Shown: positions 11,803-32,000 of the stretch, piece by piece
Layout: each line of letters starts with the position of its first letter
How positions within the stretch are numbered: the first letter of the stretch is position 1
From: Candidatus Saccharimonadota bacterium
GTDB taxonomy: Bacteria; Patescibacteriota; Gracilibacteria; UBA1369; 2-02-FULL-48-14
Direction of reading: 5' to 3'
Length of the DNA: 32,000 nt
Assembly: GCA_041661045.1 (NCBI GenBank)
Contig: JBAZVE010000001.1
Coordinates: 240,001 to 272,000, forward strand
Position numbers and translations under genes: made by a program
Notes under the pieces: model-generated
The model's input: the letters and a program-made list of their open reading frames with translations, nothing else
What the model was told of the DNA's origin: nothing
Database searches by the model: none

Positions 11803-12680
11803 ACAAATCCTTAAAAATGCTGGAAAAACTCACCGATTTGGACACCGGTTCCAAGTGCAACTGGTGCCCGGGCTGTGGTGATTTTGGAATTTTGGTGGCG
11901 CTGAAACAAGCTTTGTTTGAACTCAAATTGGATCCCGAGGAAACCATGATCGTTTCCGGAATTGGTTGTGGTTCTCAGGCTCCCCATTTGGTGAAGGTCT
12001 ACGGGTTCCATTCTATTCACGGACGATCGCTCCCTGTGGCCACCGGAATGAAAATCGCAAACCATAAAATGAATGTTATTGTGATTGGCGGAGATGGGGA
12101 TGGATATGGAATTGGAATGGCGCATTTGGTGCACAGCTCACGCCGCAATTTCAACCTCACCTACATCGTACAAAACAATCAGGTGTATGGTCTCACCAAG
12201 GGGCAAACCTCCCCCACTTCCGACCATGGATTTAAAACCAAAAGCACGCCGGAAGGAGTGATTGAAATGGCGGCTCGACCGCTGGGCATTGCACTGGCTT
12301 CCGGGGCCACCTTTTTGGCACGCGGTTATGCCGGCGATATCATGCATCTCAAAAAAATGATCATGGAAGGCATTCAACATCGTGGATTTTCTTTGATCGA
12401 TGTGCTTCAACCCTGCGTGACTTTTAATAAAGTGAACACCTACCAGTGGTACCAAGAAAGGATTCATAAATTGGAAACTGAACCGGATTATGATCCCACC
12501 AGTCGTGCCATGGCTTTTGCGAAGGCCGAGGAGTGGGGAGACAAAATCAATATTGGGGTTTACTACAAAGAAGACCGCTCGACATATGAGGATGAACTCC
12601 CTATGATTGCCGAGCAGCCTCTGGTGGATCACGACATTTCGAGTGTGGACATCAGCGACGCGATGAAATTTTACCTCTAA
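11799..12680 (+). CDS. korB: 2-oxoacid:ferredoxin oxidoreductase, beta (TPP-binding) subunit
   Basis: Contains WCPGCGDFGIL, GGDGDGYGIG and QNNQVYGLTKGQ motifs. ATGA overlap with the alpha subunit. Confidence 0.9.
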   Translation: MNKSLKMLEKLTDLDTGSKCNWCPGCGDFGILVALKQALFELKLDPEETMIVSGIGCGSQAPHLVKVYGFHSIHGRSLPVATGMKIANHKMNVIVIGGDGDGYGIGMAHLVHSSRRNFNLTYIVQNNQVYGLTKGQTSPTSDHGFKTKSTPEGVIEMAARPLGIALASGATFLARGYAGDIMHLKKMIMEGIQHRGFSLIDVLQPCVTFNKVNTYQWYQERIHKLETEPDYDPTSRAMAFAKAEEWGDKINIGVYYKEDRSTYEDELPMIAEQPLVDHDISSVDISDAMKFYL

Positions 12681-12683
12681 TGT

Positions 12684-12968
12684 ATGCCAACCGTTAAAAA
12701 TCATTCCACCGGTGCCACCGCGCAATGCGCAGTGGGCTCAAGTTTCCGTGAAGTCGCCCAAACTGCGGGTCTCGATATTGCCTTTGCTTGTGAGAGTGGG
12801 ATTTGTTCCACCTGCCTTATTCAAATCAAGAGTGGTGCAGAAAATTTGGGGCCGAAAACTGAACAAGAAGAATTCACTTTGGAGGTACGGGGTGTGGATG
12901 CCGGTGACATGACCACCCGACTCGGCTGCCAGTGCACCGTGAATGGAGATGTGGAATTTGAGCAGTAA
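12684..12968 (+). CDS. [2Fe-2S] ferredoxin (plant/adrenodoxin-like)
   Basis: CESGICSTC (C-x4-C-x2-C) plus a distal Cys in LGCQCTV. It starts 3 nt after the korB stop. Confidence 0.8.
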   Translation: MPTVKNHSTGATAQCAVGSSFREVAQTAGLDIAFACESGICSTCLIQIKSGAENLGPKTEQEEFTLEVRGVDAGDMTTRLGCQCTVNGDVEFEQ

Positions 12969-12996
12969 ACATAAGACCGTACATAACTACTTCCTT

Positions 12997-15905: not shown

Positions 15906-17492
15906 ATGCCGCCTCTCACTCAAAACTGTCGACTGACCGGGAAACCCTTCACGGTGAGTGAATGGGAACAGGAGTTTTGTGCGCGGATGGGTGTGCCGGT
16001 GCCTTCGCTTTGTCCGGAGGAGCGGCAACGGAAAAGACTGGCGCACAGGAATGAACGGTCGCTATATAAACGGGGCTGTGATTTGTGTAAAAAAGTGATG
16101 ATCGCCATTTATCCGGAGTCTGCGCCCTTCCCCGTGTATTGCAGCGAGTGTTGGTGGGGCGATGGATGGGATCCCATGGATTACGGACAAGCGTTTGATT
16201 TTTCCAAACCTTTTTTTGATCAATTTAAGGAAGTGTATTTTCGGGTGCCGCGGGTGGGTGTGCTCAGTAGAAATGGAGAGAACAGCGAGTACACAAACTG
16301 TGAAGAGGGATCGAAAAATTGTTACCTCACCTTTGCCGGAGGATATTCGGAGGATTGCTCCTATTGTTATTTGAGCATCTCCTGCCGGGACTGTGTGGAC
16401 TGTTCACTCATCAACCATTCTGAGCTCTGTTACGAAGGCTTGGAACTCGACAATTGTTACCACTGTTTTTATCTCCAAAATTCACAAAACTGCAGTGATT
16501 GTGTGCTTGGGGTAGACCTCGTCTCCTGTAAAAATTGCTTTGGCTGCAAGGGGCTCCGGAATAAAGAGTTTTATATTTTCAATGAACCGTATTCAAAAGA
16601 GACTTATGAGGCAAAAATCGCCGAGTTGGATCCGCGTTCACCGGAAGTTCAGGCTCAGTTTTCTGCCCTTTGCTTGTCTATACCGAATAAATTTGCCCAC
16701 CTCAATAATTGTGAGAATTGTACGGGGGATTATATATTAAATAGTCAAAATTGTTTCAACTCTTTTGACATCAAAAATGGGAAGGATCTTATGTATGTCT
16801 ATTTAGGGCAAGATTTAAAAGATGCTTACGACTCTAATGTGATCTTCATCGGCACAGAGCTGATTTATAATTCTCACAGCATCTGCGTGAATTGTTTTCA
16901 AGTGCGTTGTTCCAACTTTTCCTGGAATATTTCTTTTTCGGATTACTGTGATTTCTGCCATTATTCAAAGAATTTGTTTGGGTGCGTTGCATTGAAGCGG
17001 AAAGAATATTGCATCCTCAATAAACAGTATTCAAAGGAGGAATACGAGGTGCTTGTGCCCCGCATCATCGAACACATGAAACAGACCGGCGAATGGGGTG
17101 AGTTCTTTCCTTATTCCGTTTTTGCCTACAATGAAACTTTGGCGCAGGAGTATTTTCCTCTGAGTAAAGAAGAGGCCGTGGAGCTTGGCTACCAATGGAA
17201 AGAACCCGTTGCTCAGGAGTTCGTGGCTGTCCCCGGTGCAAAGACCTGTGAGACCTGTAGAAAGGTGTTCAAATGCATTCAAAAAGAATTGGATTTTTAC
17301 AAGAAAATGAGCTTACCTGAACCGCAGAAATGTCATGATTGCCGACATAAGGCTCGAATGATGGGGCACAATCCACGAGAACTCTGGGCACGACAATGCA
17401 TGAAGTGTTCACGGGACATTCAAAGCAGCACTTCCCCAGATCGGGCGGAACCTGTGTACTGCGAGAAGTGCTATCTTGCTTTGATTTATTGA
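15906..17492 (+). CDS. Cys-rich double-zinc-ribbon / Cys-ladder family protein, paralog 1 of 8 (function unknown)
   Basis: 528 aa, ~42 Cys by my count. Alignable end to end with the seven other copies. The C-terminal module has four intact C-x2-C knuckles (CETC, CHDC, CMKC, CEKC). Confidence 0.9.
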   Translation: MPPLTQNCRLTGKPFTVSEWEQEFCARMGVPVPSLCPEERQRKRLAHRNERSLYKRGCDLCKKVMIAIYPESAPFPVYCSECWWGDGWDPMDYGQAFDFSKPFFDQFKEVYFRVPRVGVLSRNGENSEYTNCEEGSKNCYLTFAGGYSEDCSYCYLSISCRDCVDCSLINHSELCYEGLELDNCYHCFYLQNSQNCSDCVLGVDLVSCKNCFGCKGLRNKEFYIFNEPYSKETYEAKIAELDPRSPEVQAQFSALCLSIPNKFAHLNNCENCTGDYILNSQNCFNSFDIKNGKDLMYVYLGQDLKDAYDSNVIFIGTELIYNSHSICVNCFQVRCSNFSWNISFSDYCDFCHYSKNLFGCVALKRKEYCILNKQYSKEEYEVLVPRIIEHMKQTGEWGEFFPYSVFAYNETLAQEYFPLSKEEAVELGYQWKEPVAQEFVAVPGAKTCETCRKVFKCIQKELDFYKKMSLPEPQKCHDCRHKARMMGHNPRELWARQCMKCSRDIQSSTSPDRAEPVYCEKCYLALIY

Positions 17493-17537: not shown

Positions 17538-19208
17538 ATGGCCGCGTGCAGGCAATGCAATCAAACCTTTGAAGTCGCTGCGGAGGACCTTGCTTTTTAT
17601 GACAGTATTTCGCCAAGTTTTGCTGGGAAAAAATATCCTATTCCGGCTCCAAAAATGTGTCCGCAATGTCGTCTTCAGCGGCGGATGGCGTTTAGGAATG
17701 AACGCAAGCTTTACACACGGAAAAGTGATTTGAGTGGACGGAGTATTATCAGCAATTATTCTCCTGATAAGCCTCATAAGATATATGACCAGGATGAATG
17801 GTGGTCTGACGCATGGGACCCGCTCGGTTATGGACGAGATTTTGATTTTAGTAGAACCTTTAATGAGCAGTTTAGGGGATTGGTGGAGACCGTGCCTCAG
17901 GTCTCTCTCGTCAATAAAAGTGGTGAGAACAGTTATTATACTAATTTTGCAATTTTTGTACGCAATTGTTATCTCGTATTTGGAGCGGGCAATGATGAGG
18001 ACTGTATGTATGGAAAGTACATTGTGGACAGCAAAGACTGCGTGGACAATTTGGCCATTTACTCCTGTGAACTCTGTTATGAGGGGGTTGCCTCCGAAGG
18101 CTGCTATCAATGCCGGTACTTTTTGAATTCTCGAAATTGTAGCGACTGTTTGATGGTGGATTCCTGCCTTTCATGTAAAAACTGTATCGCCTGCTTTGGC
18201 TTGGTCTCAAAGGAATATTATTATTTGAATACCTTTGTTGGGAAGGAGCGTTTTGAAGAGTTGAAAAAGGAATATGAATATTTAACGGCTAAAAAAGTGG
18301 CCTTTTTGCGGGAGCAGTTGGATGTGCTGAAGGGCCCTTTGCCCCACCGACAAGCGCAAACTTACGGGTGTGAGAATTGCACGGGAGACAATGTCTACAA
18401 CTCTAAAAACTGCCACCATGTTTTTGATGCCAAGGAATGCGAAGATTCTAAATATTTAAACTTTTCCCCAAAAACAAAGAATTCTTATGACATTATTTTT
18501 TGCGCTCCCGACGGAGTAGAGTTTTCTTACAATTTGTGCTCTGTGTTGAGTTTGAAAAACGCAATGAGTAATTATTTGGTTTGGAATGGCAGTGACATTT
18601 ATTATTCTCTCTCCTGCCACAGCTGCAATTCCATCTTTGGCTGCGTGGGCCTCCACAATAAACAGTACTGCATTTTTAATAAGCAGTATTCAAAAGAGGA
18701 GTATGAAATTTTGGTCGGCCGCATTATTGAACACATGCAAAAAACAGGAGAATGGGGAGAGTTTTTTGACTATTCCGTTTCGCCTTTTGGCTACAATGAG
18801 ACGGTGGCGGAGGAGTACTTTCCCCTGAATAAAGATCAAGTGCTGGCTTTGGATGCCAAGTGGCATGAAGAGTGTGACGAACAAATAGATGGAGCGCCTG
18901 TAGATGAAATTCCGGAGGATATTCGGTCTGTGGATGATGAAATTCTAAAAAAAGTACTCCACTGTGAAGTGAGCGGACGCCCTTATAAAATCACGCCCCA
19001 AGAGTTGAAATTTTATAGAAACATGAAATTGCCGTTACCACGGCGCCACCACGATGAACGGCATTTGAATCGCATCGCGCTACACAATCCCTACACCCTT
19101 TTTGACCGGTCTTGTGGAAAGTGTGGCAAAGCTATCCAGACTACTTACACTGAGCTTAGGGCAAAAGTGGTGTACTGCGAGGCCTGTTATTTGGCTAAGG
19201 TTTACTAA
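17538..19208 (+). CDS. Cys-rich family protein, paralog 2 of 8
   Basis: 556 aa. MAACRQCNQTFEV..CPQCRLQRRMAFRNERKLY; conserved block CIFNKQYSKEEYEILVGRIIEHMQKTGEWGEFF; C-terminus ..CGKCGKAIQTTY..VVYCEACYL. Confidence 0.9.
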   Translation: MAACRQCNQTFEVAAEDLAFYDSISPSFAGKKYPIPAPKMCPQCRLQRRMAFRNERKLYTRKSDLSGRSIISNYSPDKPHKIYDQDEWWSDAWDPLGYGRDFDFSRTFNEQFRGLVETVPQVSLVNKSGENSYYTNFAIFVRNCYLVFGAGNDEDCMYGKYIVDSKDCVDNLAIYSCELCYEGVASEGCYQCRYFLNSRNCSDCLMVDSCLSCKNCIACFGLVSKEYYYLNTFVGKERFEELKKEYEYLTAKKVAFLREQLDVLKGPLPHRQAQTYGCENCTGDNVYNSKNCHHVFDAKECEDSKYLNFSPKTKNSYDIIFCAPDGVEFSYNLCSVLSLKNAMSNYLVWNGSDIYYSLSCHSCNSIFGCVGLHNKQYCIFNKQYSKEEYEILVGRIIEHMQKTGEWGEFFDYSVSPFGYNETVAEEYFPLNKDQVLALDAKWHEECDEQIDGAPVDEIPEDIRSVDDEILKKVLHCEVSGRPYKITPQELKFYRNMKLPLPRRHHDERHLNRIALHNPYTLFDRSCGKCGKAIQTTYTELRAKVVYCEACYLAKVY

Positions 19209-19225: not shown

Positions 19226-20848
19226 ATGCAGAGCTGTAAGCAGTGTCAAAACCCTTTTGAAGTCACCCCCACCGAGCGTGAATTCCTTAAAAAAGTGGCT
19301 CCAGTTATTGGCGAGCGGCGCTTTGAGATCCCGGAACCCTCCCTTTGCGCTGATTGTCGGCGACAAAGACGATATGCGATTCGAAACGACAGAATTCTTT
19401 ACAAACGGAAATGTGATAAGACCGGTAAGCCGATTGTTTCCGTACACCACGCTGATAAGCCCTTCCCCGTCTACGCCCTGGATGTGTGGTGGAGTGATGC
19501 GTACGATCCCCTGAGCTATGGTCGGGATTTCGACTTTTCCAGGACCTTTTTTGATCAGTTTCATGAGCTATCGACCGCGGTTCCTCGGGCGGCATGCATT
19601 GTTGTGAATTCCGAGAACTGTGACTACACGGCCTTTACTTTACAGTCTCGCAACTGTTTTCTTTCTTCTCGCTTGGCCGACACGGAAGATATTTATTACA
19701 CTTACTTGGCGCTCAAGAGTCGTTCTTGCTTTGACGGGTATAACTTAGCCGAGTGTGAACTTTGTTACGAGTGCATCGATTGCCGCAAATGCTATCGGTG
19801 TTTTTACACGGAAAATTCCAGAGGCTCTTTTAACCTCTTGTTTTGTGCCGATATGTCCGGCTGCAACGACTGTTTTGGCTGTGTGGGTTTGGTGCAAAAA
19901 AAATATCATTTCTTCAATCAGGCCCTTTCAAAAGAAGAGTATGAGAAACGAGTTCAGGAATGGTGGGATGGTTCTCATGAGGCGTTTGTGAAATGCCGGG
20001 CTGCTTTTGAAGCTTTTAGGAAAACCGTTCCGGTTCGTGCAACGGTGGTCCTCAACTCTGAGTATGTGCAAGGAAGTCATATTTTTGACAGTAAGAATGT
20101 GAACAATTCCTTTGATATCGTGGGCTGCGAAGATGTCCTTGATTGCACTCAAACTGAGTTTAGCAAAGACTGTATGGATACCGATTTTGCTTATGAAGTC
20201 GAGCTTCTGTACGAAGTGCTTTCAGGTGGGAAAAGCTCCAGAAGCCTTTTTTCTTTCGCTTTGGTTGGTGGCAGCAGTGAGACGATCTATTCCTGTTATT
20301 GCAGTAACGGTAACCAAAACCTTTTTGGGTGCATCGGTATGAAGGGCAGCAAGTATTGCATTTTCAATAAACAGTATTCAAAAGAGGAGTATGAGATTTT
20401 GGTGCCGCGCATCATTGAGCACATGCAAAAGACCGGAGAATGGGGTGAGTTTTTCCCGGTGGAGCATTCCACAATGGCCTACAACGAGTCTGTGGCACAA
20501 GAACGGTTCCCTCTCACGAAAGAAGAAGTCTTGCAGCGAGGGTGGAGTTGGTACGATGCTCCTGAAAGTGCGGCGGCCCAGGCTGAGGGAGACAATGTGC
20601 TCACCTGTGAAGTGAGTGGCCGAGCTTTCCGTTTGATCCCTCAGGAACTCAAATTCTACAAAGAGATGAACTTACCTTTGCCCACGAAGTGTCCAGATGA
20701 ACGCCATGCCGACCGTTTGGCAAAACGCACCCCTTATCGCTTACGCCCTACCCGGTGCCGGAAATGTTCCACGGAGATATTGACCGACATCCCCACGGAT
20801 GAAAAAATGATTTATTGTGAAGCTTGTTATTTAGCCGAAATCTACTGA
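19226..20848 (+). CDS. Cys-rich family protein, paralog 3 of 8
   Basis: 540 aa. MQSCKQCQNPFEV..CADCRRQRRYAIRNDRILY; CIFNKQYSKEEYEILVPRIIEHMQKTGEWGEFFP; ends CEACYLAEIY. Confidence 0.9.
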   Translation: MQSCKQCQNPFEVTPTEREFLKKVAPVIGERRFEIPEPSLCADCRRQRRYAIRNDRILYKRKCDKTGKPIVSVHHADKPFPVYALDVWWSDAYDPLSYGRDFDFSRTFFDQFHELSTAVPRAACIVVNSENCDYTAFTLQSRNCFLSSRLADTEDIYYTYLALKSRSCFDGYNLAECELCYECIDCRKCYRCFYTENSRGSFNLLFCADMSGCNDCFGCVGLVQKKYHFFNQALSKEEYEKRVQEWWDGSHEAFVKCRAAFEAFRKTVPVRATVVLNSEYVQGSHIFDSKNVNNSFDIVGCEDVLDCTQTEFSKDCMDTDFAYEVELLYEVLSGGKSSRSLFSFALVGGSSETIYSCYCSNGNQNLFGCIGMKGSKYCIFNKQYSKEEYEILVPRIIEHMQKTGEWGEFFPVEHSTMAYNESVAQERFPLTKEEVLQRGWSWYDAPESAAAQAEGDNVLTCEVSGRAFRLIPQELKFYKEMNLPLPTKCPDERHADRLAKRTPYRLRPTRCRKCSTEILTDIPTDEKMIYCEACYLAEIY

Positions 20849-20854
20849 TTTTTT

Positions 20855-22504
20855 ATGCCCGATATTCATCTCACCTGCCGCCTCACAGGAAAACCTTTTA
20901 CGGTTAGTGAGTGGGAGCAAGAACATCTTAAAAAATTTGATGCCCCTTTGCCGGATTTGTGCCCGGAGGAAAGACATCGCAAACGACTTTCCCATCGCAA
21001 TGAACGACGGCTTTATAAGAGAAATTGCTCCATGACGGGGGAGCCTGTAATTTCCGTGTTTTCGCCTGATAAAGATTTGCTCGTTTACCGCACGGAGGCA
21101 TGGAGAGGGGATGCCTGGGATGGACGCGATTATGGGATCGACTATGATTTCTCGAAACCTTTTTTTGAACAATTTGCGGCGTTGCAACGCATGGTGCCTC
21201 ACATGGCACTATTGAATGTGAATGGAGAGAATAGCGAGTATTGCAACATTACAACTGGGAATAAAAATTGTTATCTGGTCTTTGGTGGTGACTTTTGTGA
21301 AGACTGTAGATATTCGGTCTTTAGTATGCACTGCCGAGATGTCTCTGATGTGTATTGGGTGAATGGTTCGGAGCTCGTTTATGACACCTTAGACTCTGAG
21401 AATTGTTATAATATACGCTACTCTCAAAAGGCTTTTGGATGCAGGGATAGCAGTTTTTTGTTTGAGTGTCGCAATTGTGAAAACTGCTTCGGATGTGTGG
21501 GTTTGGTTGGAAAGAAATATCATATTTTCAACAAACCTTATCCCCCTGAAGAGTACAAAGAAAAGATCAAAGCCATGCGTTTGGACACCTGGAGTGGGGT
21601 AGAGAATATGCGAAAAGAATTTACTGAGTTCAAACTACAATTTCCTCATCGTTATGTGAAAATTATAAATAGTGAACACTGCACGGGTGATGACATTTCC
21701 GGAGCTAAGAACTGCGAGAATTGTTTTGGTATTTATGGGCCTGCGGAAGATTTGAAGGATATCTTTTTAGGGGGCTGGGGACTCAATGATTCCGCAAGCT
21801 CCGACCATATCGGTCATAAGGCTGAGCTTTTCTACGAAATGTTGGGCTCTATTGATGGTTCTCATTGTGCTTTCTGTACATTTTCTTGGAGTTCTCAAGA
21901 CACTTTTTATTGTAACTTTGTTCTCAACTCCCACGACCTCTTTGGCTGCAGTAATTTGAAGCGGGCGGAGTACTGCATCCTCAATAAGCAGTACAGCAAA
22001 GAAGATTATTTCGCTTTGCGGGGACGGATTGTGGAGCACATGAAATCTACCGGTGAATGGGGGCAATTTTTCCCTGCAAAAAACTCCCTTTTTGCTTACA
22101 ACGAGACAGTGGCTCAAGATTATTTCCCTCTCACAAAGGAGGCGGCTTTGGCTCAGGGATTGCGGTGGTTTGATGAAGAGAAACGGGCACTCACCCCCAA
22201 CGATTTACCTGACTCTATCCATGACATTACGGATGAAATTTTGAGCAAAACCCTGGTCTGTGAAAAAACTGGGCGACCTTACAAAATCATTCCAAGCGAG
22301 CTCAAGCTTTATCGTCAGATGGAAATCCCTATTCCACGGTATGCCCCCGAAACACGCAATGAAATCCGTATTGCTTCCCGAAATCCCATTCAAACATGGA
22401 CCAGGCAATGCGCAAAATGTGCGAAACCCATTGAAACCACTTATGCCCCCGATCGCCCCGAAAAAGTGTACTGTGAGGCCTGTTATTTAGCCGAAATCTA
22501 CTGA
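20855..22504 (+). CDS. Cys-rich family protein, paralog 4 of 8
   Basis: 549 aa. It starts 6 nt after paralog 3. The N-terminal CRLTGKPFTVSEWEQE is identical to paralog 1. It ends CEACYLAEIY. Confidence 0.9.
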   Translation: MPDIHLTCRLTGKPFTVSEWEQEHLKKFDAPLPDLCPEERHRKRLSHRNERRLYKRNCSMTGEPVISVFSPDKDLLVYRTEAWRGDAWDGRDYGIDYDFSKPFFEQFAALQRMVPHMALLNVNGENSEYCNITTGNKNCYLVFGGDFCEDCRYSVFSMHCRDVSDVYWVNGSELVYDTLDSENCYNIRYSQKAFGCRDSSFLFECRNCENCFGCVGLVGKKYHIFNKPYPPEEYKEKIKAMRLDTWSGVENMRKEFTEFKLQFPHRYVKIINSEHCTGDDISGAKNCENCFGIYGPAEDLKDIFLGGWGLNDSASSDHIGHKAELFYEMLGSIDGSHCAFCTFSWSSQDTFYCNFVLNSHDLFGCSNLKRAEYCILNKQYSKEDYFALRGRIVEHMKSTGEWGQFFPAKNSLFAYNETVAQDYFPLTKEAALAQGLRWFDEEKRALTPNDLPDSIHDITDEILSKTLVCEKTGRPYKIIPSELKLYRQMEIPIPRYAPETRNEIRIASRNPIQTWTRQCAKCAKPIETTYAPDRPEKVYCEACYLAEIY

Positions 22505-24105
22505 TGCAGAAAGTATGTAAAAAGTGCAGCGGGCCGTTTGAAATCACTCTTGAGGATGAAGTGTTTTTGAAGAAATTTGAAGTGCCTGCGCCTTCCCTTT
22601 GTCCCGAGTGTCGTAACCAAAGACGATGGACCTTTCGCAATGATCGGAACTTTTATAAGCGGGATTGTGACTTGTGCCATGCCGTCATGATTAGTATTTA
22701 TTCAAAAGAAAAACCTTTTCCTGTTTACTGCAAAGACTGCTATCTCAGTGACGCCTTCGATCCTTTGAAGTACGGCGTTGATTATGACCCCACTCGATCT
22801 TTTTTTGAACAATTTGGTGAGATGCGGGCTCGAGTTCCCCGCATGGCCAGTTACCAAACCCAAAGTGAGAATTCCGACTACACCGTGCACAGTGCTAAAA
22901 ACAGAAACTGCTACATGGGGAACTCTTTCCGTGAGTGCGAGGATGTTTTTTATTCTGATTTTGCTCAGTTTTCAAAGGACAGCATGGATCTTTATATGTG
23001 CAGTAATGTGGAACAATGCTACGACTGCACGGATAGCGACCAATGTTACCATTCCATTCACTTGGAGAATTGCATGAGCACGAATTTTTCTTGTCTTTGT
23101 TTTGATTGCCGCAGCAGCAGCAACTTGATTGCCTGCGTTGGGCTCCGAAGAAAAGAATTCATGGTCTTGAATAAACCTGTTAGTAAAGAGGAATTTGAAC
23201 AGACTTGGACCCGCTTCAATACAGATCCCACTTTCCGTAAAGATTTGGAGGAAAAATATAAGCAACTGCGCCTAGAAACTCCCGTAAAAAGTTTTTGGGA
23301 GAAGAATAGTGAGAATTGCAGTGGGAATTACATCGTGAATTCCAAGAATGCTCAGCACTGTTATAACAGCCGCAGCGTTGAGGATTCTCGTTATAATTTT
23401 GATGTGATTGATGTGAAAGATGCGATGGATATCACTCGCGCCGCGGGTGGTGAATTTTTGTACGAAGTTCATGCCATGATCGATCTTTTCTTCAGTAAAT
23501 TTTGTAACCTTTGCTACCAGTCGAGCGAGCTTGAATACTGTGACAACTGCCAGGCTAGCAAAAAGAGTTTTGGCTGCATGAGCCTTAAGGGGCACAGCAA
23601 CTGCATCCTCAACAAACACTATTCTCCGGAGGACTATGAAAAGCTCCGTGATCAAATAAAAGCGCAAATGTTGGCCGATTCCGAGTATGGCGAATTTTTT
23701 CCGTCTTCTCTCTCGGTTTTTGCCTACAATGAAAGTAAGGCTCGGGACTTTTTCCCGCTGACTCGTGAGCAAGCACTCGCTCAAGGTTACCAATGGCGTG
23801 ATCCGGAGGAAGCGGCCCGCCCCGTGCAGGGTGCTCAAGTCTCCGCAGACATTTTGGCGTGCGAAGGCTGTGGTAAAAATTATCGCATCATCCCTCAAGA
23901 GCTCGCGTTCTATCGCAAAATGGGGCTGCCCCTTCCTCACTTTTGTTTTGACTGTCGTCACCTCAAACGAGTGGCGCTTCAAAATCCTCAACGGCTCTAC
24001 TCGCGCGCGTGCGCAAAATGCTCGGCTCCCTTTGAAACCACCTACGCCCCCGACCGTCCCGAAAAAGTGTACTGCGAAAAGTGCTACTTGGAGACCGTGG
24101 GCTAG
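22504..24105 (+). CDS. Cys-rich family protein, paralog 5 of 8 (most divergent; all eight terminal knuckles intact)
   Basis: 533 aa. The start overlaps the paralog 4 stop (TGATG). Knuckles are CKKC, CPEC, CDLC, CKDC at the N-terminus and CEGC, CFDC, CAKC, CEKC at the C-terminus. Confidence 0.9.
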   Translation: MQKVCKKCSGPFEITLEDEVFLKKFEVPAPSLCPECRNQRRWTFRNDRNFYKRDCDLCHAVMISIYSKEKPFPVYCKDCYLSDAFDPLKYGVDYDPTRSFFEQFGEMRARVPRMASYQTQSENSDYTVHSAKNRNCYMGNSFRECEDVFYSDFAQFSKDSMDLYMCSNVEQCYDCTDSDQCYHSIHLENCMSTNFSCLCFDCRSSSNLIACVGLRRKEFMVLNKPVSKEEFEQTWTRFNTDPTFRKDLEEKYKQLRLETPVKSFWEKNSENCSGNYIVNSKNAQHCYNSRSVEDSRYNFDVIDVKDAMDITRAAGGEFLYEVHAMIDLFFSKFCNLCYQSSELEYCDNCQASKKSFGCMSLKGHSNCILNKHYSPEDYEKLRDQIKAQMLADSEYGEFFPSSLSVFAYNESKARDFFPLTREQALAQGYQWRDPEEAARPVQGAQVSADILACEGCGKNYRIIPQELAFYRKMGLPLPHFCFDCRHLKRVALQNPQRLYSRACAKCSAPFETTYAPDRPEKVYCEKCYLETVG

Positions 24106-24121: not shown

Positions 24122-24940
24122 TCACTGCGCCACAAAGGCCGTGGCTCCGAGCCACGCCAGGTTAAAAATGGCCCGTTGAGTGCGTGCGTACACGGCGGAC
24201 TCAATGTGCATTCCCATCCGTTCATCCGGATTTAAGGACATTATGGCGACCTTGTTTTCGTAGATGGAAATTTGGTTTTCAAAATTGAATTCTTTTGGAT
24301 TCACAAAGAGAATTTCCACCAATTCCTGCGGATATTTTTTGGGGTAGAAGCGTTTTACGAATTGCCGTGCCTGCTCTGTGGAAGGCGAAAGTAAGCGCAC
24401 CTTGATGTGATTTTTGACGAGTTTCTCCGTATAAGTGGGGAGATAATCGGGGAGGAGCTCACCCAGGGCCTCCAGGTTGGTGTAACCCAACACCTCCGAT
24501 TTTGCCTCGAGCGTTTGCTCAAAAATGGTCTTGATACCCTCCAGTCCTTCGTACGAGCGGATGATGGGCTTAAAAGCCAGCGCATTGGTGATGGAGAGCA
24601 GCTCGGGAAGGAGCTTTTTTGCGCTTTGATACTGCGTTTCCATTTGGTTCACCAAGACTTGGGGGGGCTCCGCTACAAAAAACTTCACTTTGCCCTTAAA
24701 ATTGGCGGTCACAAGGCCGTGTTTTCGTAGGTTTTCCAAGACATAATAACAGTTTACGCGCGGGATTTTTGCTTGGCTCGCGATGGTGCTTGCAAAAGAA
24801 CCCCCAAGCTCCAAAACCGTGAGGTAAACCTGAGCTTCCTCCTCCGAAAGGCCGAATTCTTGGAGTTTTTCCTGCAGCAATTGGCTTTGTTGTAAAATAA
24901 TTTCTACAACTAATCTAACCTGTAATTTACTATTTTTCAA
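24122..24940 (-). CDS. TrmB-family transcriptional regulator (winged HTH plus C-terminal domain)
   Basis: FGLSEEEAQVYLTVLELGGSFASTIASQAKIPRVNCYYVLENLRKHGLV is the typical TrmB N-terminal HTH. Convergent with paralog 5 (16-nt gap). Confidence 0.8.
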   Translation of the reverse strand: MKNSKLQVRLVVEIILQQSQLLQEKLQEFGLSEEEAQVYLTVLELGGSFASTIASQAKIPRVNCYYVLENLRKHGLVTANFKGKVKFFVAEPPQVLVNQMETQYQSAKKLLPELLSITNALAFKPIIRSYEGLEGIKTIFEQTLEAKSEVLGYTNLEALGELLPDYLPTYTEKLVKNHIKVRLLSPSTEQARQFVKRFYPKKYPQELVEILFVNPKEFNFENQISIYENKVAIMSLNPDERMGMHIESAVYARTQRAIFNLAWLGATAFVAQ

Positions 24941-25329: not shown

Positions 25330-26106
25330 ATGACACCCGATACCCCTATCGCCATTATTGGACTTGGACATCTTGGCAGCAGTATTGCAAAACGGCTCAT
25401 TAGAAATGGACACAAGAAACTTGTTGCTACTCGACGAAATGAAAACGAACTCCAAGCACCTAAAGATCTGAGTCCACATTTAGTCCTGACGACCGACAAT
25501 GAAATGGCCGTGAAAAATGCTGCCGTGATTATATTGGCGACTAAAGAAGCAAGCTTTGAGGACTTTGCAGCTGCCATTAAAGCCGGCCGACAAGGGAAGC
25601 TCTTAATCAGTCTTGGTCCGACCTTCAAACTGAACAAGCTCGATGAACTATTTGGTGGGCACAATGTTCGCTTGATCACTCCGGTAGACGCTAGAAATGA
25701 TGTTATTTGTTACTCAACGGATTCTTTTTGTTCTGATGAAGACGAAAAAGTTCTCCACTATATTTTTGGAGAGTGTATTCAAAAAGTCCCCGAAGAAGAG
25801 ATGCCTCTCGCAACGGCTTTCGTGCTTTTCAGAGGAGTACTCAATTCATTCCTCGATCCCTTCATTCGGGTTGCCGCTCAAGAGGGACTTGATGCACAAA
25901 GCTCACAGAAAATAATGGGGGAAATGCTTATTTCTTGTGGTGAGGAGCTTAGGGATGGAATCTCCTCTGAGAAGCGCCTTGAAAATGCGAGTGGTGGCTT
26001 TAATGAAAAGAGCTTCACCATGCGGCTTTACAAAGAGCTGGAGCCAGCTCAAGTGCTTTTAAAAGACCTGTTTGAGAAGGTTTGTAAACAATTTAAGAAT
26101 CTATGA
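25330..26106 (+). CDS. Pyrroline-5-carboxylate reductase-like NAD(P)-dependent oxidoreductase
   Basis: ORF 25300..26106, trimmed to ATG 25330, 1 nt after the csaA stop. It has the Rossmann motif IAIIGLGHLGSSIAKRL and a ProC-like length and C-terminal helical domain. Assignment to the ProC family is by resemblance only. Confidence 0.7.
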   Translation: MTPDTPIAIIGLGHLGSSIAKRLIRNGHKKLVATRRNENELQAPKDLSPHLVLTTDNEMAVKNAAVIILATKEASFEDFAAAIKAGRQGKLLISLGPTFKLNKLDELFGGHNVRLITPVDARNDVICYSTDSFCSDEDEKVLHYIFGECIQKVPEEEMPLATAFVLFRGVLNSFLDPFIRVAAQEGLDAQSSQKIMGEMLISCGEELRDGISSEKRLENASGGFNEKSFTMRLYKELEPAQVLLKDLFEKVCKQFKNL

Positions 26107-27764
26107 CTCCGATCACAAAAACTTGTACGGTCAGCGGAAAACCCTTCATCATCTCTGATGAGGATCAAGCCTACTACACAAAGATTGGCGTCCCCATGCC
26201 TTCGCTATGTCCCAAAGAACGGCAACGACGACGCCTCAGCTTTCGGAATGAGCGCAATCTTTATCATCGCAAATGCGATCTTACGGGACACCAAATTATT
26301 TCCAACTATTCACCGGATAAGATGTTTAAGGTTTATGAGAAAGACTCCTGGTGGTCTGACGCCTGGGATCCATTGAGTTATGGAAGGCCTTACGATTTTT
26401 CCAGATCTTTTTTCGACCAGTTTCATGAGCTACAACTCGTGGTTCCTCGCATCAATCTTTTTTCAAAGGGAGGTGAGAATGTTGCTTATACAAATCATGC
26501 TACTTACAACAAGGACTGCTATCTTCTTTTTAACGCCACACATTGTGAAGGGGTTCATTACTCGACAAATTATGTCCTCAACTGCAAGAACTGTGTCGAC
26601 TGTTACTCCATCGACCGTTGTGAACTTTTGTACAATAGTGTTTTTTGTGAACAATGCTTTTCATCCACCGACTTGGTGAGTTCCAAGAATTGCTCTGAAA
26701 GTGCTTTTCTTTATGACTGTAGAAATTGCCAAAACTGTTTCATGTCTTATGGCCTAAGAAACAAGAAGTTTTGTATTGGGAATAAACAATACTCTGAAGG
26801 TGAGTATCGGGAACAAATGAAGAAATATGATCTTGGAAGTTATAAAGTCTATAATGAATTAAAAGAAGAGTTTCGTAAAATGTTGAGGGATTCTGCTGTC
26901 CATCGCTTTGCGATTATAGATTTGAGTGAAGACTGCTCCGGAGACTATATTTTTGAGTCTCAAAATACAAAGGAGTCCTTTTACGCGATCAAATGCAAAG
27001 ATTCCAAGTTCATTTATGACGGCTACGAGAACATTGACTGTTATGATGTTTATGAAAGTGCGCTTCAATGTGAAAGGCAGTATGAATGTTACGCCTGTAA
27101 TTACACAAAATATTCCTACGGCTCACATGTGTCTCACGAGAGCTATAATCTCTACTACAGTGATCACTGTTTCAACTCAAATGACTTATTTGGATGTATC
27201 GGTTTAAAGAAAAAAACCTACTGCATTTTGAACAAACAGTATTCCAAAGAAGAGTATCTTGAACTTTTCCCTCGCATCGTTGAACACATGAAACAAACCG
27301 GAGAGTGGGGAGAGTTTCACCCTTCGACACTTTCTCCTTTTGCCTACAATGAATCTGTTGCGCAAGATTTCCTACCTCTTTCCAAGGAAGAAGTTTTAAG
27401 TCGAGGACTTGTTTGGAAGGAAAAGTTGGACGATGGTGCGGCTTATGCGGGACCCGTGATATCCATCCCAGACAATATTAAAGATGTTGAACCCAGTATT
27501 TGTGAGGCTATCTTGCAATGTGATGTCACCGGAAAATATTTCAAAATCATTCCACAAGAGCTAGCGTTCTATAAACAGCTTGGCCTTCCCATCCCTCGCC
27601 AGTGCTTTGAAGAACGCCACAAGGGCCGCACGCAATTCAGGAATCCACGGATTTTGTGGGACCGCACCTGCATGCACTGTAACGCTCCCATCAAAACCAC
27701 TTACTCTCCGGAAAGACCCGAGAAAGTCTACTGCGAAGCCTGTTACTTAAAAACCGTTTATTGA
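26103..27764 (+). CDS. Cys-rich family protein, paralog 6 of 8
   Basis: 553 aa. ATGA overlap with the preceding oxidoreductase gene. Contains CILNKQYSKEEYLELFPRIVEHMKQTGEWGEFHP and ends CEACYLKTVY. Confidence 0.9.
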   Translation: MTPITKTCTVSGKPFIISDEDQAYYTKIGVPMPSLCPKERQRRRLSFRNERNLYHRKCDLTGHQIISNYSPDKMFKVYEKDSWWSDAWDPLSYGRPYDFSRSFFDQFHELQLVVPRINLFSKGGENVAYTNHATYNKDCYLLFNATHCEGVHYSTNYVLNCKNCVDCYSIDRCELLYNSVFCEQCFSSTDLVSSKNCSESAFLYDCRNCQNCFMSYGLRNKKFCIGNKQYSEGEYREQMKKYDLGSYKVYNELKEEFRKMLRDSAVHRFAIIDLSEDCSGDYIFESQNTKESFYAIKCKDSKFIYDGYENIDCYDVYESALQCERQYECYACNYTKYSYGSHVSHESYNLYYSDHCFNSNDLFGCIGLKKKTYCILNKQYSKEEYLELFPRIVEHMKQTGEWGEFHPSTLSPFAYNESVAQDFLPLSKEEVLSRGLVWKEKLDDGAAYAGPVISIPDNIKDVEPSICEAILQCDVTGKYFKIIPQELAFYKQLGLPIPRQCFEERHKGRTQFRNPRILWDRTCMHCNAPIKTTYSPERPEKVYCEACYLKTVY

Positions 27765-29410
27765 TGGCACCACTTACTAAAAACTGTGCGGCGAGCGGAA
27801 AATCTTTCGTTATCTCCGATGAAAATCAAGCTTTTTATGCAAAGATGGGCTTACCCTTGCCCACCCTGTGCCCGGAAGAACGGAGGCGAAGAAGGTTTTC
27901 TCACCGCAATGAACGAAACCTTTATCACCGCAAATGCGATCTTTCAGGGAAGAGCATTATTTCTAATTTTGCACCTGATGGGGACTATAGTGTTTATGAG
28001 CACGGGGAGTGGTGGAGTGATCAATGGGATGCTAAAACTTATGGACAGGATTTTGATTTCAACCGTCCATTTTTTGAGCAGTTTGAGGGTCTGAGCAAGA
28101 AAGTTCCTAAACTGGCCATGTCCGTTTGGAACTCGGAAAATAGCAGTTACTGCAACTATGTTGGGAATGTGAAAGACTCGTATTTGATCTTTGGATCGGT
28201 CTACAGCGAAAAGTGTTTTTACGGCTCGCCTTACTACTCTTTTGACTGCTTGGATACCCTGGTTGTGCGCGAGTGTGAGCACTGTTACGAGTGTGTGGAC
28301 TCTCGAAAACTATACGAGTGTTTCTACTGCCAAGACTGCCACAGTTCGCGAAATTTGATCTATTGTTATGACCTCCAAGCTTGCAGCGATTGCATTGCTT
28401 GTGCAGGCCTGCGGAACAAGCAGTACTGCATTTTTAATGAGCAACTCAGCAAAGAAGAGTATGAGAAACGAAAATCTGAATTTAAATTGTGGGATCCAAA
28501 AATTCAAACGCTTTTAAAGGCCAAACTTGCGGCACTCAAACTTCAAATCCCACATCGCTATATGCAGAGTCGACAGGTAGAAAATGTGAGTGGAAACTAT
28601 GTTTTCCAATCTAAAAATATCGAGAATTCTTACTTCACTGATCGGGCGGAAGACTGTGCTTATTGTATGCAAGTGGTGGACTTAAAGGATTGTTATGATA
28701 ATAATTTCACCGAGGAGAATGAACTGTGTTACGAGTACCTTGGCGCCTACCAAAATCAAAAGCTGCTTTTCTCAAAGTTCTGCAATAAAGTTTTCGAAAG
28801 TGCTTACTGCAACAGTTGTTTCAATTCTCATCACCTTTTTGCTTGTGATGGAATCCGCAATTCGTCTTATTGTATTTTCAATAAACAGTATACAAAAGAG
28901 GACTATGAGGCTTTGGTGCCAAAAATAATTGAGCACATGGGAAAGACCGGCGAATGGGGCGAGTTCTTCCCTGTTACTGGTTCTCCTTTTGGCTACAATG
29001 AGACCGTGGCCAATGAGTACTTCCCTCTTTCAAAAGAAGAAGCTTTAGCTCAGGGCTACCATTGGAAAGAGGACGACGAAAGCAATAGCTATCACGGTCC
29101 GATAACGGAGTTCTCTGAAAACATTGAAGAAGTGGGTGATGATATTTTACAAAAAATTCTGACCTGCGAAGTAAGCGGCAACTTGTACAAATTGATTCCA
29201 CAGGAGTTGGAATTCTACCGCCGAATGAAGTTGCCCATTCCCAAGCGAGCCCCCAATGAACGACATAAAGACCGCTTGGCTATGCGAAATCCACAGACCC
29301 TTTGGCCCAGGAATTGTGAAGGATGTACGATGGCTATAGAAAGCACCTACGCCCCCGAACGACCGGAAAAGGTGTATTGCGAGGCGTGTTATTTAAAGAT
29401 GGTGTATTAA
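27764..29410 (+). CDS. Cys-rich family protein, paralog 7 of 8
   Basis: The ORF track starts at TTG 27761. I prefer ATG 27764, which overlaps the paralog 6 stop as TGATG, the same junction as paralogs 4/5. Contains CIFNKQYTKEDYEALVPKIIEHMGKTGEWGEFFP. Confidence 0.9.
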   Translation: MAPLTKNCAASGKSFVISDENQAFYAKMGLPLPTLCPEERRRRRFSHRNERNLYHRKCDLSGKSIISNFAPDGDYSVYEHGEWWSDQWDAKTYGQDFDFNRPFFEQFEGLSKKVPKLAMSVWNSENSSYCNYVGNVKDSYLIFGSVYSEKCFYGSPYYSFDCLDTLVVRECEHCYECVDSRKLYECFYCQDCHSSRNLIYCYDLQACSDCIACAGLRNKQYCIFNEQLSKEEYEKRKSEFKLWDPKIQTLLKAKLAALKLQIPHRYMQSRQVENVSGNYVFQSKNIENSYFTDRAEDCAYCMQVVDLKDCYDNNFTEENELCYEYLGAYQNQKLLFSKFCNKVFESAYCNSCFNSHHLFACDGIRNSSYCIFNKQYTKEDYEALVPKIIEHMGKTGEWGEFFPVTGSPFGYNETVANEYFPLSKEEALAQGYHWKEDDESNSYHGPITEFSENIEEVGDDILQKILTCEVSGNLYKLIPQELEFYRRMKLPIPKRAPNERHKDRLAMRNPQTLWPRNCEGCTMAIESTYAPERPEKVYCEACYLKMVY

Positions 29411-29571: not shown

Positions 29572-30327
29572 TTAAATCCTCTCCCACATCCAGTTGAAGA
29601 GGGTGAGGAGAGATTCGTGTAGGTATTTTTCACGGATCTTGATACCCACTTCTTTTTTAGGATCGTAGCTGTTTAGGATGATGTAGTCGTTCACCAAAAT
29701 GATGTCCGACAAAAAAGAGCTTTCCTTCGCAATTTCCTTGATTTGATGATTGGGATTTTTGACCTGACTTTTGTACCAATCTGTGGTGGGGCCGGCGACT
29801 AAAATTTCACGGATGTTGGCCTTGCTTTGGGCGGTGGCTTGCAAAAAATCCTTCACCAGATTTTTGAGGCGCTCATTTGGAATAGCGATTTGAGGGTTGA
29901 AGAAAGCATTGAAATCCCCACTGATCAAGGTTTGAGAGAGTTGCTGATATACGGCTTCCATGGATTCAAATGTAGAAATTTCAAAAGCTCCGAAGTCCTG
30001 TTTCTTGGGTAAAAGCTCTTTCAAATGAGTTTGAAGCAAGCGCGTGGCACTATGAACTTCTTCAAACTGCTCACGAGCACGACCTTCCAAGACTTTAGCC
30101 ACCATTTCTGGAGGTAAACAGTTGAAGTAACTGGTGGACCCACGCTTTTTGCGAGTTACGATCCCAAAATGAACCAAGGCGTCCAAAGCAGCGTACACGG
30201 TAGTCCTTTTGACTTGCAGTTGTTTGGCCACTACGCTGGCGATGCCCTCCCCTCGTTCAAACAAGTGAAGAAACACTTTTTGCTCCATGGAGTTGAGACC
30301 GCAGGTTTGAAGTAGATTGTGGAGCAT
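29572..30327 (-). CDS. TrmB-family transcriptional regulator
   Basis: ORF 29572..30357 (TTG), trimmed to ATG 30327 (MLHNLLQTCGLNSMEQKVFLHLFERGEGIASVVAKQLQVKRTTVYAALDALVHFGIV, a TrmB-type HTH). The start choice is uncertain. Divergent from paralog 8. Confidence 0.75.
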   Translation of the reverse strand: MLHNLLQTCGLNSMEQKVFLHLFERGEGIASVVAKQLQVKRTTVYAALDALVHFGIVTRKKRGSTSYFNCLPPEMVAKVLEGRAREQFEEVHSATRLLQTHLKELLPKKQDFGAFEISTFESMEAVYQQLSQTLISGDFNAFFNPQIAIPNERLKNLVKDFLQATAQSKANIREILVAGPTTDWYKSQVKNPNHQIKEIAKESSFLSDIILVNDYIILNSYDPKKEVGIKIREKYLHESLLTLFNWMWERI

Positions 30328-30375
30328 GGTTGATGTGGCTATCCGCCTTGTTGTCAAAATTATTTTGACAATATT

Positions 30376-30470: not shown

Positions 30471-32000
30471 ATGGAAACTCTCCAAAAAACCTGTACGCAC
30501 TGCCAAAAGAACTTCGATCTGGATGAAAAGGATCAGGCCTTCTACAGAGAAATGGGTGTGCCCCACCCCACGCAGTGTCCGAACTGCCGTGAACAACGCC
30601 GCTTGGCCTGGCGCAATGAACGCACTCTATATTTGAGGAAATGTGACCTCACGGGTGAGCCCACTTTGTCGGTTTTTTCTGAAGATAAGCCTTACAAGGT
30701 CTACAAAAACGAGCACTGGTATTCGGACAAATGGAACGCCATGAACTACGGGCAGGATTTTGACTTCACTCGGCCTTTCTTTGAACAATTTAATGAACTG
30801 CTACGGAAAGTTCCGCAACTGGCGCTTTCATCCACCGGAAACCAGAACTCCGACTACATCAACCAAGCGGGCTGGTGCAAAGATTGCTATTTGATTTTTG
30901 AGGCTGATTACAATGATAAATGCATGTATTCCACGCATATTGGAGACTCGCGGGACTGCATGGATACCTTGCAAGTGATGAAGTCCGAACTTTGTTATGA
31001 ATGCATCGATTGCCAGAATTGTTATGGTTTGCGTTTTGGGCAAGACTGTATGAACTGCTCCGATTCTTGGTTCCTTAAAAATTGTATTGGCTGCAGCGAT
31101 TGTTTTGGCTGCGTGAATTTGAGAAATAAAAAATATTGCATCTACAATCAACAATATTCACGCGAGGAATACTTGCAGAAATTGGCCGGATTTGACCTGC
31201 AAAACTTGGCTAGCTTACAAAAAATAGGGGAGGACTTCTCAAAATATGCCGTCCAGTTCCCTTGCAAAAATTACCATGGCACCCAGAATGAAGGGTCGGA
31301 GGGTGACTACCTCTATAATACTCAAAATTGCCGCGATTGTTTCGATGTCTACAATGCGCAAGATTGTCGTTTTGTGACGGAGTCGCGCAATGTGAAAAAG
31401 GTCTATGATATGACCGTTTTCGGTTCGCAAAAGGGTGTTGAGTTTTGTTATGAATGTCATGAAATTGGCGAGAGTGTTCGTAACATTTATTTTTCTGACC
31501 AGGTTTGGGAAGGCTGTTACGACATTTATTACAGCAAACTCTGCATGCAAAATTCTCATAATTTGTTTGGCTGCGTGGGGCTGCGTAAGGCCACCTACTG
31601 CATTTTGAATAAACAGTATTCGAAAGAAGAGTATGAAGCGCTGATGCCACGCATCGTTGAACACATGAAAAAGACTGGCGAGTGGGGCGAGTTTTTTCCG
31701 GCGAGTATGAGTCCATTTGCTTACAATGAAACCTTGGCGCAACAGTACTACCCCCTCAGTAAAGAAGAGGCCGAGAACTCTGGCTATGACTGGAAAGAAG
31801 AGGTCAAAAACCCTGTGGTGGAGGGGATCCCAATCTGTAAAGACTGTGGAAAAAACTTCAAAATCGTGACCCAAGAACAAGAGTTTTACAAAAAAATGAA
31901 GTTGCCTGAGCCCACGACTTGTTCCGAGTGCCGCCATAAAAACCGCTTCTCAAAGCGGAACCCACGAAAACTGTGGGAACGGAACTGTGAAGAGTGTCAG
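30471..32000 (+). CDS. Cys-rich family protein, paralog 8 of 8 or more (3' end runs off the right edge of the window)
   Basis: Absent from the ORF track because it has no stop in the window. Manual translation gives METLQKTCTHCQKNFDLDEKDQAFYREMGVPHPTQCPNCREQRRLAWRNERTLYLRKCDLTG...CILNKQYSKEEYEALMPRIVEHMKKTGEWGEFFP...CKDCGKNFKIVTQEQEFYKKMKLPEPTTCSECRHKNRFSKRNPRKLWERNCEECQ. The frame is open for 510 codons to position 32000. Confidence 0.9.
   Translation, partial: METLQKTCTHCQKNFDLDEKDQAFYREMGVPHPTQCPNCREQRRLAWRNERTLYLRKCDLTGEPTLSVFSEDKPYKVYKNEHWYSDKWNAMNYGQDFDFTRPFFEQFNELLRKVPQLALSSTGNQNSDYINQAGWCKDCYLIFEADYNDKCMYSTHIGDSRDCMDTLQVMKSELCYECIDCQNCYGLRFGQDCMNCSDSWFLKNCIGCSDCFGCVNLRNKKYCIYNQQYSREEYLQKLAGFDLQNLASLQKIGEDFSKYAVQFPCKNYHGTQNEGSEGDYLYNTQNCRDCFDVYNAQDCRFVTESRNVKKVYDMTVFGSQKGVEFCYECHEIGESVRNIYFSDQVWEGCYDIYYSKLCMQNSHNLFGCVGLRKATYCILNKQYSKEEYEALMPRIVEHMKKTGEWGEFFPASMSPFAYNETLAQQYYPLSKEEAENSGYDWKEEVKNPVVEGIPICKDCGKNFKIVTQEQEFYKKMKLPEPTTCSECRHKNRFSKRNPRKLWERNCEECQ

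Follow-up and report, generated by a model that had tools for sequence, protein, structure and literature searches.

Paired two-finger modules at both ends of a cysteine-rich Patescibacteriota protein family, and the retention of their putative zinc sites as units

Why should the cysteines at the two ends of a protein be kept or lost in matched pairs, and what are the ends that carry them? The question is raised by a locus of Candidatus Saccharimonadota bacterium (GTDB lineage Bacteria; Patescibacteriota; Gracilibacteria; UBA1369; 2-02-FULL-48-14), analysed here as a window of 32,000 nucleotides (nt) which covers positions 240,001 to 272,000 of the forward strand of contig JBAZVE010000001.1 (assembly GCA_041661045.1). 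Eight paralogous genes, named p1 to p8, are found on the plus strand from 15906 to the window end, and the complete proteins are 528-556 amino acids (aa) long. In each of them the first 83-88 or so and the last 87 or so residues align with each other, and both ends carry C-x2-C (CxxC) knuckles in intact or degraded form. We propose, with a probability of roughly 0.75, that these ends are two-finger treble-clef modules with one structural zinc per finger, whose sites are kept or abandoned as units.

Homologous ends and the paired fate of their knuckles

The eight N-terminal modules were compared with the seven C-terminal modules by profile-profile alignment (hhalign), which gave a probability of 99.7% and E = 8.7e-26 over 81 gapless columns. 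As an example, the N-terminal module of p5 aligns with its own C-terminal module over 78 gapless residues with 32% identity (BLASTP, E = 3e-17). The preliminary description of this locus had proposed that the ends of every paralog are homologous modules and had named the significance of their similarity beforehand as a point at which the proposal could fail; the similarity came out significant, and resemblance by chance or by composition was rejected on the strength of the same two comparisons. Paired homologous two-finger modules at both ends are therefore regarded as confirmed. In a joint alignment of 46 N- and C-terminal modules, the invariant residues are one cysteine (C7 of the module alignment, 46 of 46 modules), one proline and two arginines. 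A short secondary BLAST match raised the further possibility that finger a and finger b of one module arose by internal duplication, which was rejected because hhalign gave a probability of only 6.6%. The N-terminal finger a of p2 and p3 contains a 9-residue insertion of the type SISPSFAGK / VAPVIGERR between the FY helix and the LPxP loop, and this insertion is common to many family members with an intact N-a site.

Knuckles were read from a MAFFT alignment of the window paralogs, where site a consists of knuckles a1 and a2 and site b of b1 and b2. The pattern of each protein is given in the order N-a/N-b/C-a/C-b, with 1 for an intact and 0 for a degraded site. N-a was found intact in p2, p3, p5 and p8, N-b in p1 and p5, C-a in p1, p5 and p8, and C-b in all 7 of the complete copies, while the degraded forms in the window are Cxx[ST]G together with CP[EK]E or xxxE. 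To place these patterns in the wider family we used 326 non-identical members drawn from the 8 window copies, 117 best database matches and 206 full-length open reading frames, the last detected by a family hidden Markov model in 79 genome loci. Counting members with both knuckles as CxxC, with the first only, with the second only and with neither, N-a gave 215/12/2/92, N-b 92/0/0/234, C-a 125/0/6/194 and C-b 318/0/1/4, so that C-b is almost always intact. Pairing within a site is significant throughout (Fisher p from 4e-64 to 1e-83), and the few half-sites mostly show CxxH, CxxD/E or CxH, in which His, Asp or Glu can still serve as a metal ligand. Across the family the four sites occur in 9 of the 16 possible on/off combinations.

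Knuckles that belong to different sites are only loosely associated, as seen for a1 against b1 (79/148/13/81). Physical linkage was rejected as the cause of co-loss, since a shorter stretch of sequence separates a2 from b1 than a1 from a2, and a2 and b1 are nevertheless only loosely associated. As a control, all pairs among 58 variable cysteine columns were correlated, and the top five pairs (58-79, 76-79, 58-76, 456-484 and 8-36) were all knuckle partners with r of 0.90-1.00, the next best values being 0.65 and 0.62. A tree of the central region alone requires at least 28-56 parsimony changes for each variable site, the two knuckles changing together; its UPGMA (unweighted pair group method with arithmetic mean) topology is crude, and the counts could be inflated by gene conversion among paralogs. 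The site-by-site census of the preliminary description agrees with our alignment, and the family counts, the column correlations and the central-region tree uphold its suggestion that each knuckle pair is kept or lost as one unit, as is expected of one metal site. The counts and correlations likewise bear out two independent Cys4 sites per module, in which a1 pairs with a2 and b1 with b2.

In the hairpin knuckle of an abandoned site the second cysteine changes to threonine or serine and is followed by glycine, and the second cysteine of the helix-cap knuckle is replaced by Glu in N-a, by Gln, Thr or Glu in C-a and by Glu, Ala or Val in N-b. The first cysteine of the hairpin knuckle is kept in nearly all abandoned sites, namely in 57 of 61 at N-a1, 94 of 107 at N-b1 and 98 of 100 at C-a1 in a sample of 125 sequences. 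Within the window, p4 keeps C8, C36 and C58 at its abandoned sites. The simplest guess is that this first cysteine has a packing role in the knuckle.

All eight window paralogs have orthologues elsewhere which are 72-92% identical and share the same site pattern, and the window copies are mutually only about 37-46% identical (at most 45% in the comparison that included the orthologues). They form old, co-maintained subfamilies rather than a rapidly diversifying array.

Domain identity and predicted fold of the module

In a Pfam scan of isolated modules, PF13451 (zf_Tbcl, corresponding to finger a) was matched at E<=0.01 in 33 of 46 modules with a best E of 7e-8, and PF23477 (zf_Tbcl_2, corresponding to finger b) was matched in 29 of 46, the best E in the wider family being 2e-7. 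Both families are described as probable treble-clef zinc fingers. Several family members also carry precomputed PF13451 matches, and NCBI labels members as 'zinc-ribbon domain containing protein'. The spacing CxxC-x17-CxxC of finger b is exact in p1 (C61-C79; C501-C519) and p5 (C58-C76; C506-C524), and the other window copies align with p1 and p5 across finger b without gaps.

A tblastn search with one module recovered a free-standing 92-aa 'zinc-ribbon domain containing protein' of Pusillibacter faecalis (E = 4e-4 and 1e-5) with relatives in Subdoligranulum and on a phage-like contig (MT837064). The P. faecalis protein, WP_187028406.1, scores 88.3 bits with PF13451 and 68.4 bits with PF23477/TIGR04272. 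The profile of 46 modules aligns with it at a probability of 98.8% (hhalign, E = 9.5e-17, 84 columns) with all eight cysteines in register. On these grounds the terminal module is a fused, divergent copy of a free-standing two-finger bacterial protein of about 90 aa. The two share the order of the fingers, the length, the FY motif, the proline before the second knuckle, the basic helix after the second knuckle and the CxxC-x17-CxxC spacing. They differ in that the module forms the entire free-standing protein, whereas here two copies with approximately 27% identity to it cap a Cys-rich core of about 380 aa, and in that many copies here lack the cysteines. Finger a also occurs alone, for example in a 50-aa protein on the Clostridium perfringens plasmid pCW3.

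The free-standing protein is located directly downstream of a SigH-like gene of the sigma-70 family, both on the P. faecalis megaplasmid (L080:2303-3264) and on MT837064 (L081:2308-3267). Within the one bacterial lineage sampled, this neighbour hints at a transcription-related role of the stand-alone module.

The AlphaFold model of full-length p5 (124 sequences) has a mean predicted local distance difference test (pLDDT) of 89.2 and a predicted template modelling score (pTM) of 0.87, and both modules are above 90. In finger a of its N-terminal module, C5/C8 are located between strands E2-4 and E11-13 and C33/C36 at the start of helix H34-42; in finger b, C55/C58 are located between strands E51-54 and E61-64 and C76/C79 at the start of helix H77-81. 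The C-terminal module of the model has the same layout. The predicted topology is that of a treble clef, with a hairpin knuckle and a second CxxC that caps a helix. A model of the module alone has the same topology with a pLDDT of 89 and a pTM of 0.49; the higher pTM of the full-length model suggests that the orientation of the two fingers depends on the remainder of the chain. Two structural details of the preliminary description have to be revised in this light. It had called the modules zinc ribbons, a label which does not fit because the second CxxC caps a helix in all four p5 fingers, in keeping with the zf_Tbcl names. It had also read the basic segment as a linker between knuckles; the segment does not link the knuckles inside one site and is instead the helix after finger a, which joins finger a to finger b.

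Finger b also resembles the second finger of LIM domains. Its cysteines coincide one for one with those of the CCCC finger in the CRP1 and CRP2 LIM domains (E = 5e-6 to 1e-3), and the C-x2-C-x17-C-x2-C arrangement and the VYC..CY signature are shared with CRP1, CRP2 and MLP (PDB 1b8t, 1ctl and 1cxx), whose solved structures show this finger as a treble-clef Zn(Cys)4 site. LIM domains differ in being eukaryotic protein-interaction modules with a contiguous first CCHC finger, joined by a 2-residue spacer, which is absent here. The Pfam LIM profile was matched only at its positions 28-57 (finger 2), with 15.7-20.8 bits against a threshold of 22.9 bits. Two small proteins of Methanosarcina mazei with the CxxC-x17-CxxC arrangement bind zinc as judged by inductively coupled plasma mass spectrometry (PMC12704099). 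Their spacing (TIGR04272) is identical to that of finger b, and they differ in being single-finger archaeal micro-proteins. By analogy with these proteins and with the LIM finger we strongly infer that zinc is the metal of the Cys4 sites.

We therefore picture each paralog as follows. It would be a cytoplasmic protein of about 550 aa that has no signal peptide, and each module of about 85 aa would be a tandem of two different Cys4 treble-clef fingers. Finger a (zf_Tbcl-like) would consist of a hairpin CxxC, a short helix (FY..M), an LPxP loop and a CxxC capping an arginine-rich helix; finger b (zf_Tbcl_2-like and LIM-finger-2-like) would consist of CxxC-x17-CxxC with a hairpin knuckle and a CxxC capping the terminal helix. 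Each finger would hold one structural zinc through both of its knuckles. Such a site would be useful only when complete and would therefore be kept or abandoned as a unit. In an abandoned site, side-chain hydrogen bonds and packing against the rest of the protein presumably replace the metal. The C-terminal finger b alone would be indispensable, and the site pattern would be fixed within each ancient paralog subfamily.

Several observations weigh against this picture. Most window modules fall under the Pfam and NCBIfam gathering thresholds, which are 24 bits for PF13451, 27 bits for PF23477 and 36 bits for TIGR04272. In the window the PF13451 threshold is exceeded only by the modules of p8 (N 31.3 and C 35.1 bits); the other matching modules have 15-21 bits and the N-terminal modules of p1 and p4 have no match. 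The seven complete C-terminal modules score 17.6-22.7 bits with PF23477, and p1 scores 15 bits with TIGR04272. The N-terminal finger b of the window modules gave no PF23477 match even where its cysteines are intact. A Foldseek comparison of the two-finger module with the PDB gave nothing significant, the best E being 0.22 and all hits being unrelated tandem zinc fingers, and a sequence search of the PDB returned no relative of finger a. The metal of a Cys4 site could be Fe and not Zn, the tree behind the event counts has the weakness given above, and an account centred purely on the metal does not explain why the first cysteine is retained almost everywhere.

The arginine stripe and competing readings

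The helix after finger a carries arginines at i, i+4, i+8 and i+12 which are 81-100% conserved regardless of zinc status. The modules are net basic (+3.9 and +6.4) and the rest of the protein is acidic, especially the tail before the C-terminal module (mean charge -7, lowest -17 in p2). This stripe is the likeliest functional surface of the module. It would bind a polyanion, either nucleic acid or an acidic protein partner, and nucleic-acid binding by the modules, which the preliminary description had suggested, is a conjecture drawn from the conservation of the stripe.

The modules could instead be LIM-like protein-protein adaptors which join co-expressed paralogs or other partners into hetero-oligomers and bind no nucleic acid. 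The resemblance of finger b to LIM finger 2 speaks for such adaptors, as do the close packing of p1-p5 (gaps of -1 to 45 nt) and the overlap of p6 with p7, by which proteins of differing pattern are probably co-transcribed, and the long co-maintenance of the subfamilies. The difference in pTM between the full-length and module-only models is also consistent with contacts to the rest of the protein that position the fingers, and the acidic tail and the repeats could pair with the basic modules. On the other side, the LIM scores stay under the threshold and the match extends to just one LIM finger out of two. An arginine stripe on the helix after a Cys pair is typical also of nucleic-acid-binding treble clefs, which counts against adaptors. 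We consider pure adaptors a serious but clearly less likely alternative for the role of the modules. The classical zinc ribbon, with two β-hairpin knuckles per site, is suggested by the NCBI member name and by weak matches to several Zn_ribbon Pfam families; it is improbable in our view since the second CxxC is at a helix N-terminus in both AlphaFold models and the best Pfam matches are two families described as treble clefs. Much the same low standing is given to Cys4 sites which bind iron in the manner of rubredoxin or serve as redox-active dithiols. Iron can be held by two CxxC knuckles, the pyruvate:ferredoxin oxidoreductase (PFOR) genes indicate a probably anaerobic host, and the central region is also very rich in cysteine. 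Against iron or redox chemistry, the topology and the best sequence matches are those of zinc fingers, four ligands are lost together, unlike a two-Cys redox couple, and the homologous CxxC-x17-CxxC domain was purified with zinc (PMC12704099).

Concerted loss of zinc ligands is also seen in other systems. The concept of C+ and C- ribosomal proteins is said to have been put forward by Makarova et al. in 2001. These proteins and the Cys-containing Topo_C_ZnRpt and Cys-less Topo_C_Rpt repeats of type IA topoisomerases (PMC3087516, PMC5912738, PMC9369019) resemble the present family in that all ligands of a structural zinc site are lost together and both the fold and the host protein persist. The present family differs in having four sites per protein that switch independently across many subfamilies, and in having its variants co-located in one array and not as separately regulated alternative isoforms. 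A zinc-sparing set on the ribosomal model, where 0001 copies replace 1111 copies when zinc is scarce, would account for the copies with one to four sites in the window and in the family, and adaptation by means of small zinc-binding proteins that exist with and without zinc is known (PMC5912738, PMC3087516). Such a set is nevertheless most improbable here: patterns 0111, 1001, 1001, 0001 and 1111 stand head to tail in one apparent operon whose overlapping or nearly adjacent stop and start codons leave little room for separate regulation, and paralogs that share only about 40% identity, each of them conserved from genome to genome, are not interchangeable isoforms. The regulators encoded beside them are TrmB-like, and no Zur-type regulator or site turned up, no search for one having been made.

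The core, the array and the host family

The architecture of each protein is module, repeat 1, repeat 2, acidic tail and module. The core that separates the modules is itself duplicated internally, as seen in p5 where residues ~102-238 match residues ~250-385 (hhalign, probability 99.9%, E = 7.5e-33), and an equivalent region is present in every paralog. Each core half ends in FGCxGLxxKxYxIxNKxYSKEEYE, and the repeats are predicted to form long β-strands. In all paralogs the variable cysteines of the core are spaced strictly three residues apart in ladders (C..C..C..C) whose period is 12 residues; core columns that are 12 apart co-vary weakly (r up to 0.62), and overall cysteine content is 5-8%. 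The core repeats gave no Pfam match and no PDB sequence match. Structural neighbours of the full-length model were limited to weak, low-TM matches to left-handed β-helix enzymes (LpxD, GlmU and γ-carbonic anhydrase), which fit the core only loosely.

Table 1. Features of the 32,000-nt window discussed in the text (site patterns in the order N-a/N-b/C-a/C-b)
Feature	Coordinates	Strand	Length or residues	Pattern	Remarks
PFOR subunit genes	10039-12680				
S-layer-homology protein	12943-14556	+	537 aa		upstream of array
p1	15906..17492	+	528 aa	0111	gene of the finding (reading frame, alignment); orthologues 82% and 77% identical, same pattern
p1 N module	15906..16154	+	aa 1-83		
p1 N finger a	15927-15938; 16011-16022	+			degraded, CRLT and CPEE
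p1 N finger b	16077-16088; 16140-16151	+			intact, CDLC and CSEC; CxxC-x17-CxxC
p1 core	16200-17230	+			
p1 C module	17229..17489	+	aa 442-528		PF13451 18.0 bits, PF23477 21.8 bits; AlphaFold module model pLDDT 89
p1 C finger a	17247-17258; 17331-17342	+			CETC and CHDC
p1 C finger b	17397-17408; 17460-17471	+			CMKC and CEKC
p2	17538..19208	+	556 aa	1001	
p2 N module	17538-17801	+			9-residue insertion in finger a, 17586-17612
p2 C module	18945-19205	+			
p3	19226..20848	+	540 aa	1001	
p3 N module	19226-19489	+			9-residue insertion in finger a, 19274-19300
p3 C module	20588-20845	+			
p4	20855..22504	+	549 aa	0001	
p4 N module	20855-21103	+			C8, C36, C58 kept at 20876, 20960, 21026
p4 C module	22241-22501	+			
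p4-p5 TGATG overlap	22501-22506	+			
p5	22504..24105	+	533 aa	1111	8/8 knuckles intact
p5 N module	22504-22743	+			
p5 Cys ladders	about 22864-23163; 23308-23568	+	residues 121-220; 269-355		
p5 C module	23842-24102	+			
TrmB-family regulator	24122..24940	-			helix-turn-helix; interleaved in array
Oxidoreductase-like gene overlap with p6	26103-26106				
p6	26103..27764	+	553 aa	0001	
p6 N module	26103-26351	+			
p6 C module	27501-27761	+			
p6-p7 TGATG overlap	27762-27766	+			
p7	27761..29410	+	548-549 aa	0001	likely start ATG 27764, overlapping p6 stop
p7 N module	27764-28012	+			
p7 C module	29147-29407	+			
Second TrmB-family regulator	29572..30357	-			helix-turn-helix; between p7 and p8
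p8	30471..32000	+		101?	cut by window end after third knuckle of C module; orthologues 1011
p8 N module	30471-30719	+			
p8 C module	from 31818	+			

Genes p1-p5 are arranged head to tail with intergenic gaps of 45, 17, 6 and -1 nt, and the stop and start codons of p4-p5 and of p6-p7 overlap as TGATG; the oxidoreductase-like gene likewise overlaps the start of p6. These overlaps suggest translational coupling inside the arrays, and from the arrangement of p1-p5 and of p6/p7 it would appear that paralogs of differing site pattern are probably co-transcribed. Upstream of p6 and p7 are a tRNA-binding-domain gene and an NADP-oxidoreductase-like gene. Genetic code 25, which the label 'Gracilibacteria' brings to mind, was rejected as TGA clearly ends genes at the TGATG overlaps, and table 11 is appropriate because TGA terminates these genes. 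The two TrmB-family regulators have parallels outside the window: relatives of about 250-270 aa were found in 32 of 80 sequences (the 79 loci and the window), and 28 of the 44 copies adjoin a family gene, mostly on the opposite strand. These proteins are candidates for regulating the paralog arrays.

Two further observations concern the surroundings. The protein encoded upstream of the array has a signal-peptide-like N-terminus and two S-layer-homology domains, and PFOR subunit genes precede it. Across the same 80 sequences a VirD4/TraG-like type IV coupling ATPase of about 747 aa (PF02534, PF12696) was found near family genes in 18, for example at L045:11712-13952 on the minus strand, and none was found in this window.

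The family is large: of 8,000 scored candidates, more than 7,600 clusters (90% identity) belong to it. Its proteins are about 550 aa long, and the module is present in 4,572 representatives at 50% identity. Matches labelled with an organism are nearly all from Peregrinibacteria, Peribacteria, Gracilibacteria or Patescibacteria. Arrays are common, with up to 11 copies per locus of about 21 kb in the 79 loci. Shorter relatives are rare; P0202 (359 aa) and P0167 (391 aa) have a single repeat in the order module, repeat, tail and module, and P0265 (157 aa) is a fusion of two modules. These may be ancestral forms, products of unequal recombination or assembly artefacts. Our literature search found no paper describing this family, and the domain identifiers led only to the M. 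mazei study. A genome paper on Peribacteria treats a different set, namely large secreted Cys-rich proteins (PMC4736985).

The finger families were already known, as were zinc binding by them and the joint loss of zinc ligands. What is new is the fusion of a catalogued two-finger protein to both ends of a duplicated, Cys-laddered core, and a huge uncharacterised family, almost entirely from the candidate phyla radiation (CPR), in which four zinc sites switch independently. A domain identity is thereby assigned to the ends of a very large, wholly uncharacterised protein family whose labelled members are nearly all from CPR bacteria. The combinations of zinc sites on one conserved scaffold form a natural series, in which it could be studied how a treble-clef finger keeps its fold once the metal is gone. 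The arginine stripe, rather than the metal sites, is the place to seek function.

A more speculative suggestion, which we hold to be a long shot, is that the paralogs, of which there are at least eight, ancient, co-located and apparently co-transcribed (~1% of a 1.3-Mb genome), could be the building blocks of a single cytoplasmic assembly specific to the CPR, where the Cys-laddered, β-rich cores stack or pair and the end modules act as connectors or as RNA/DNA clamps. If this were true, the family would represent an unrecognised machine or scaffold of Peregrinibacteria-type bacteria whose zinc dependence is tuned subunit by subunit.

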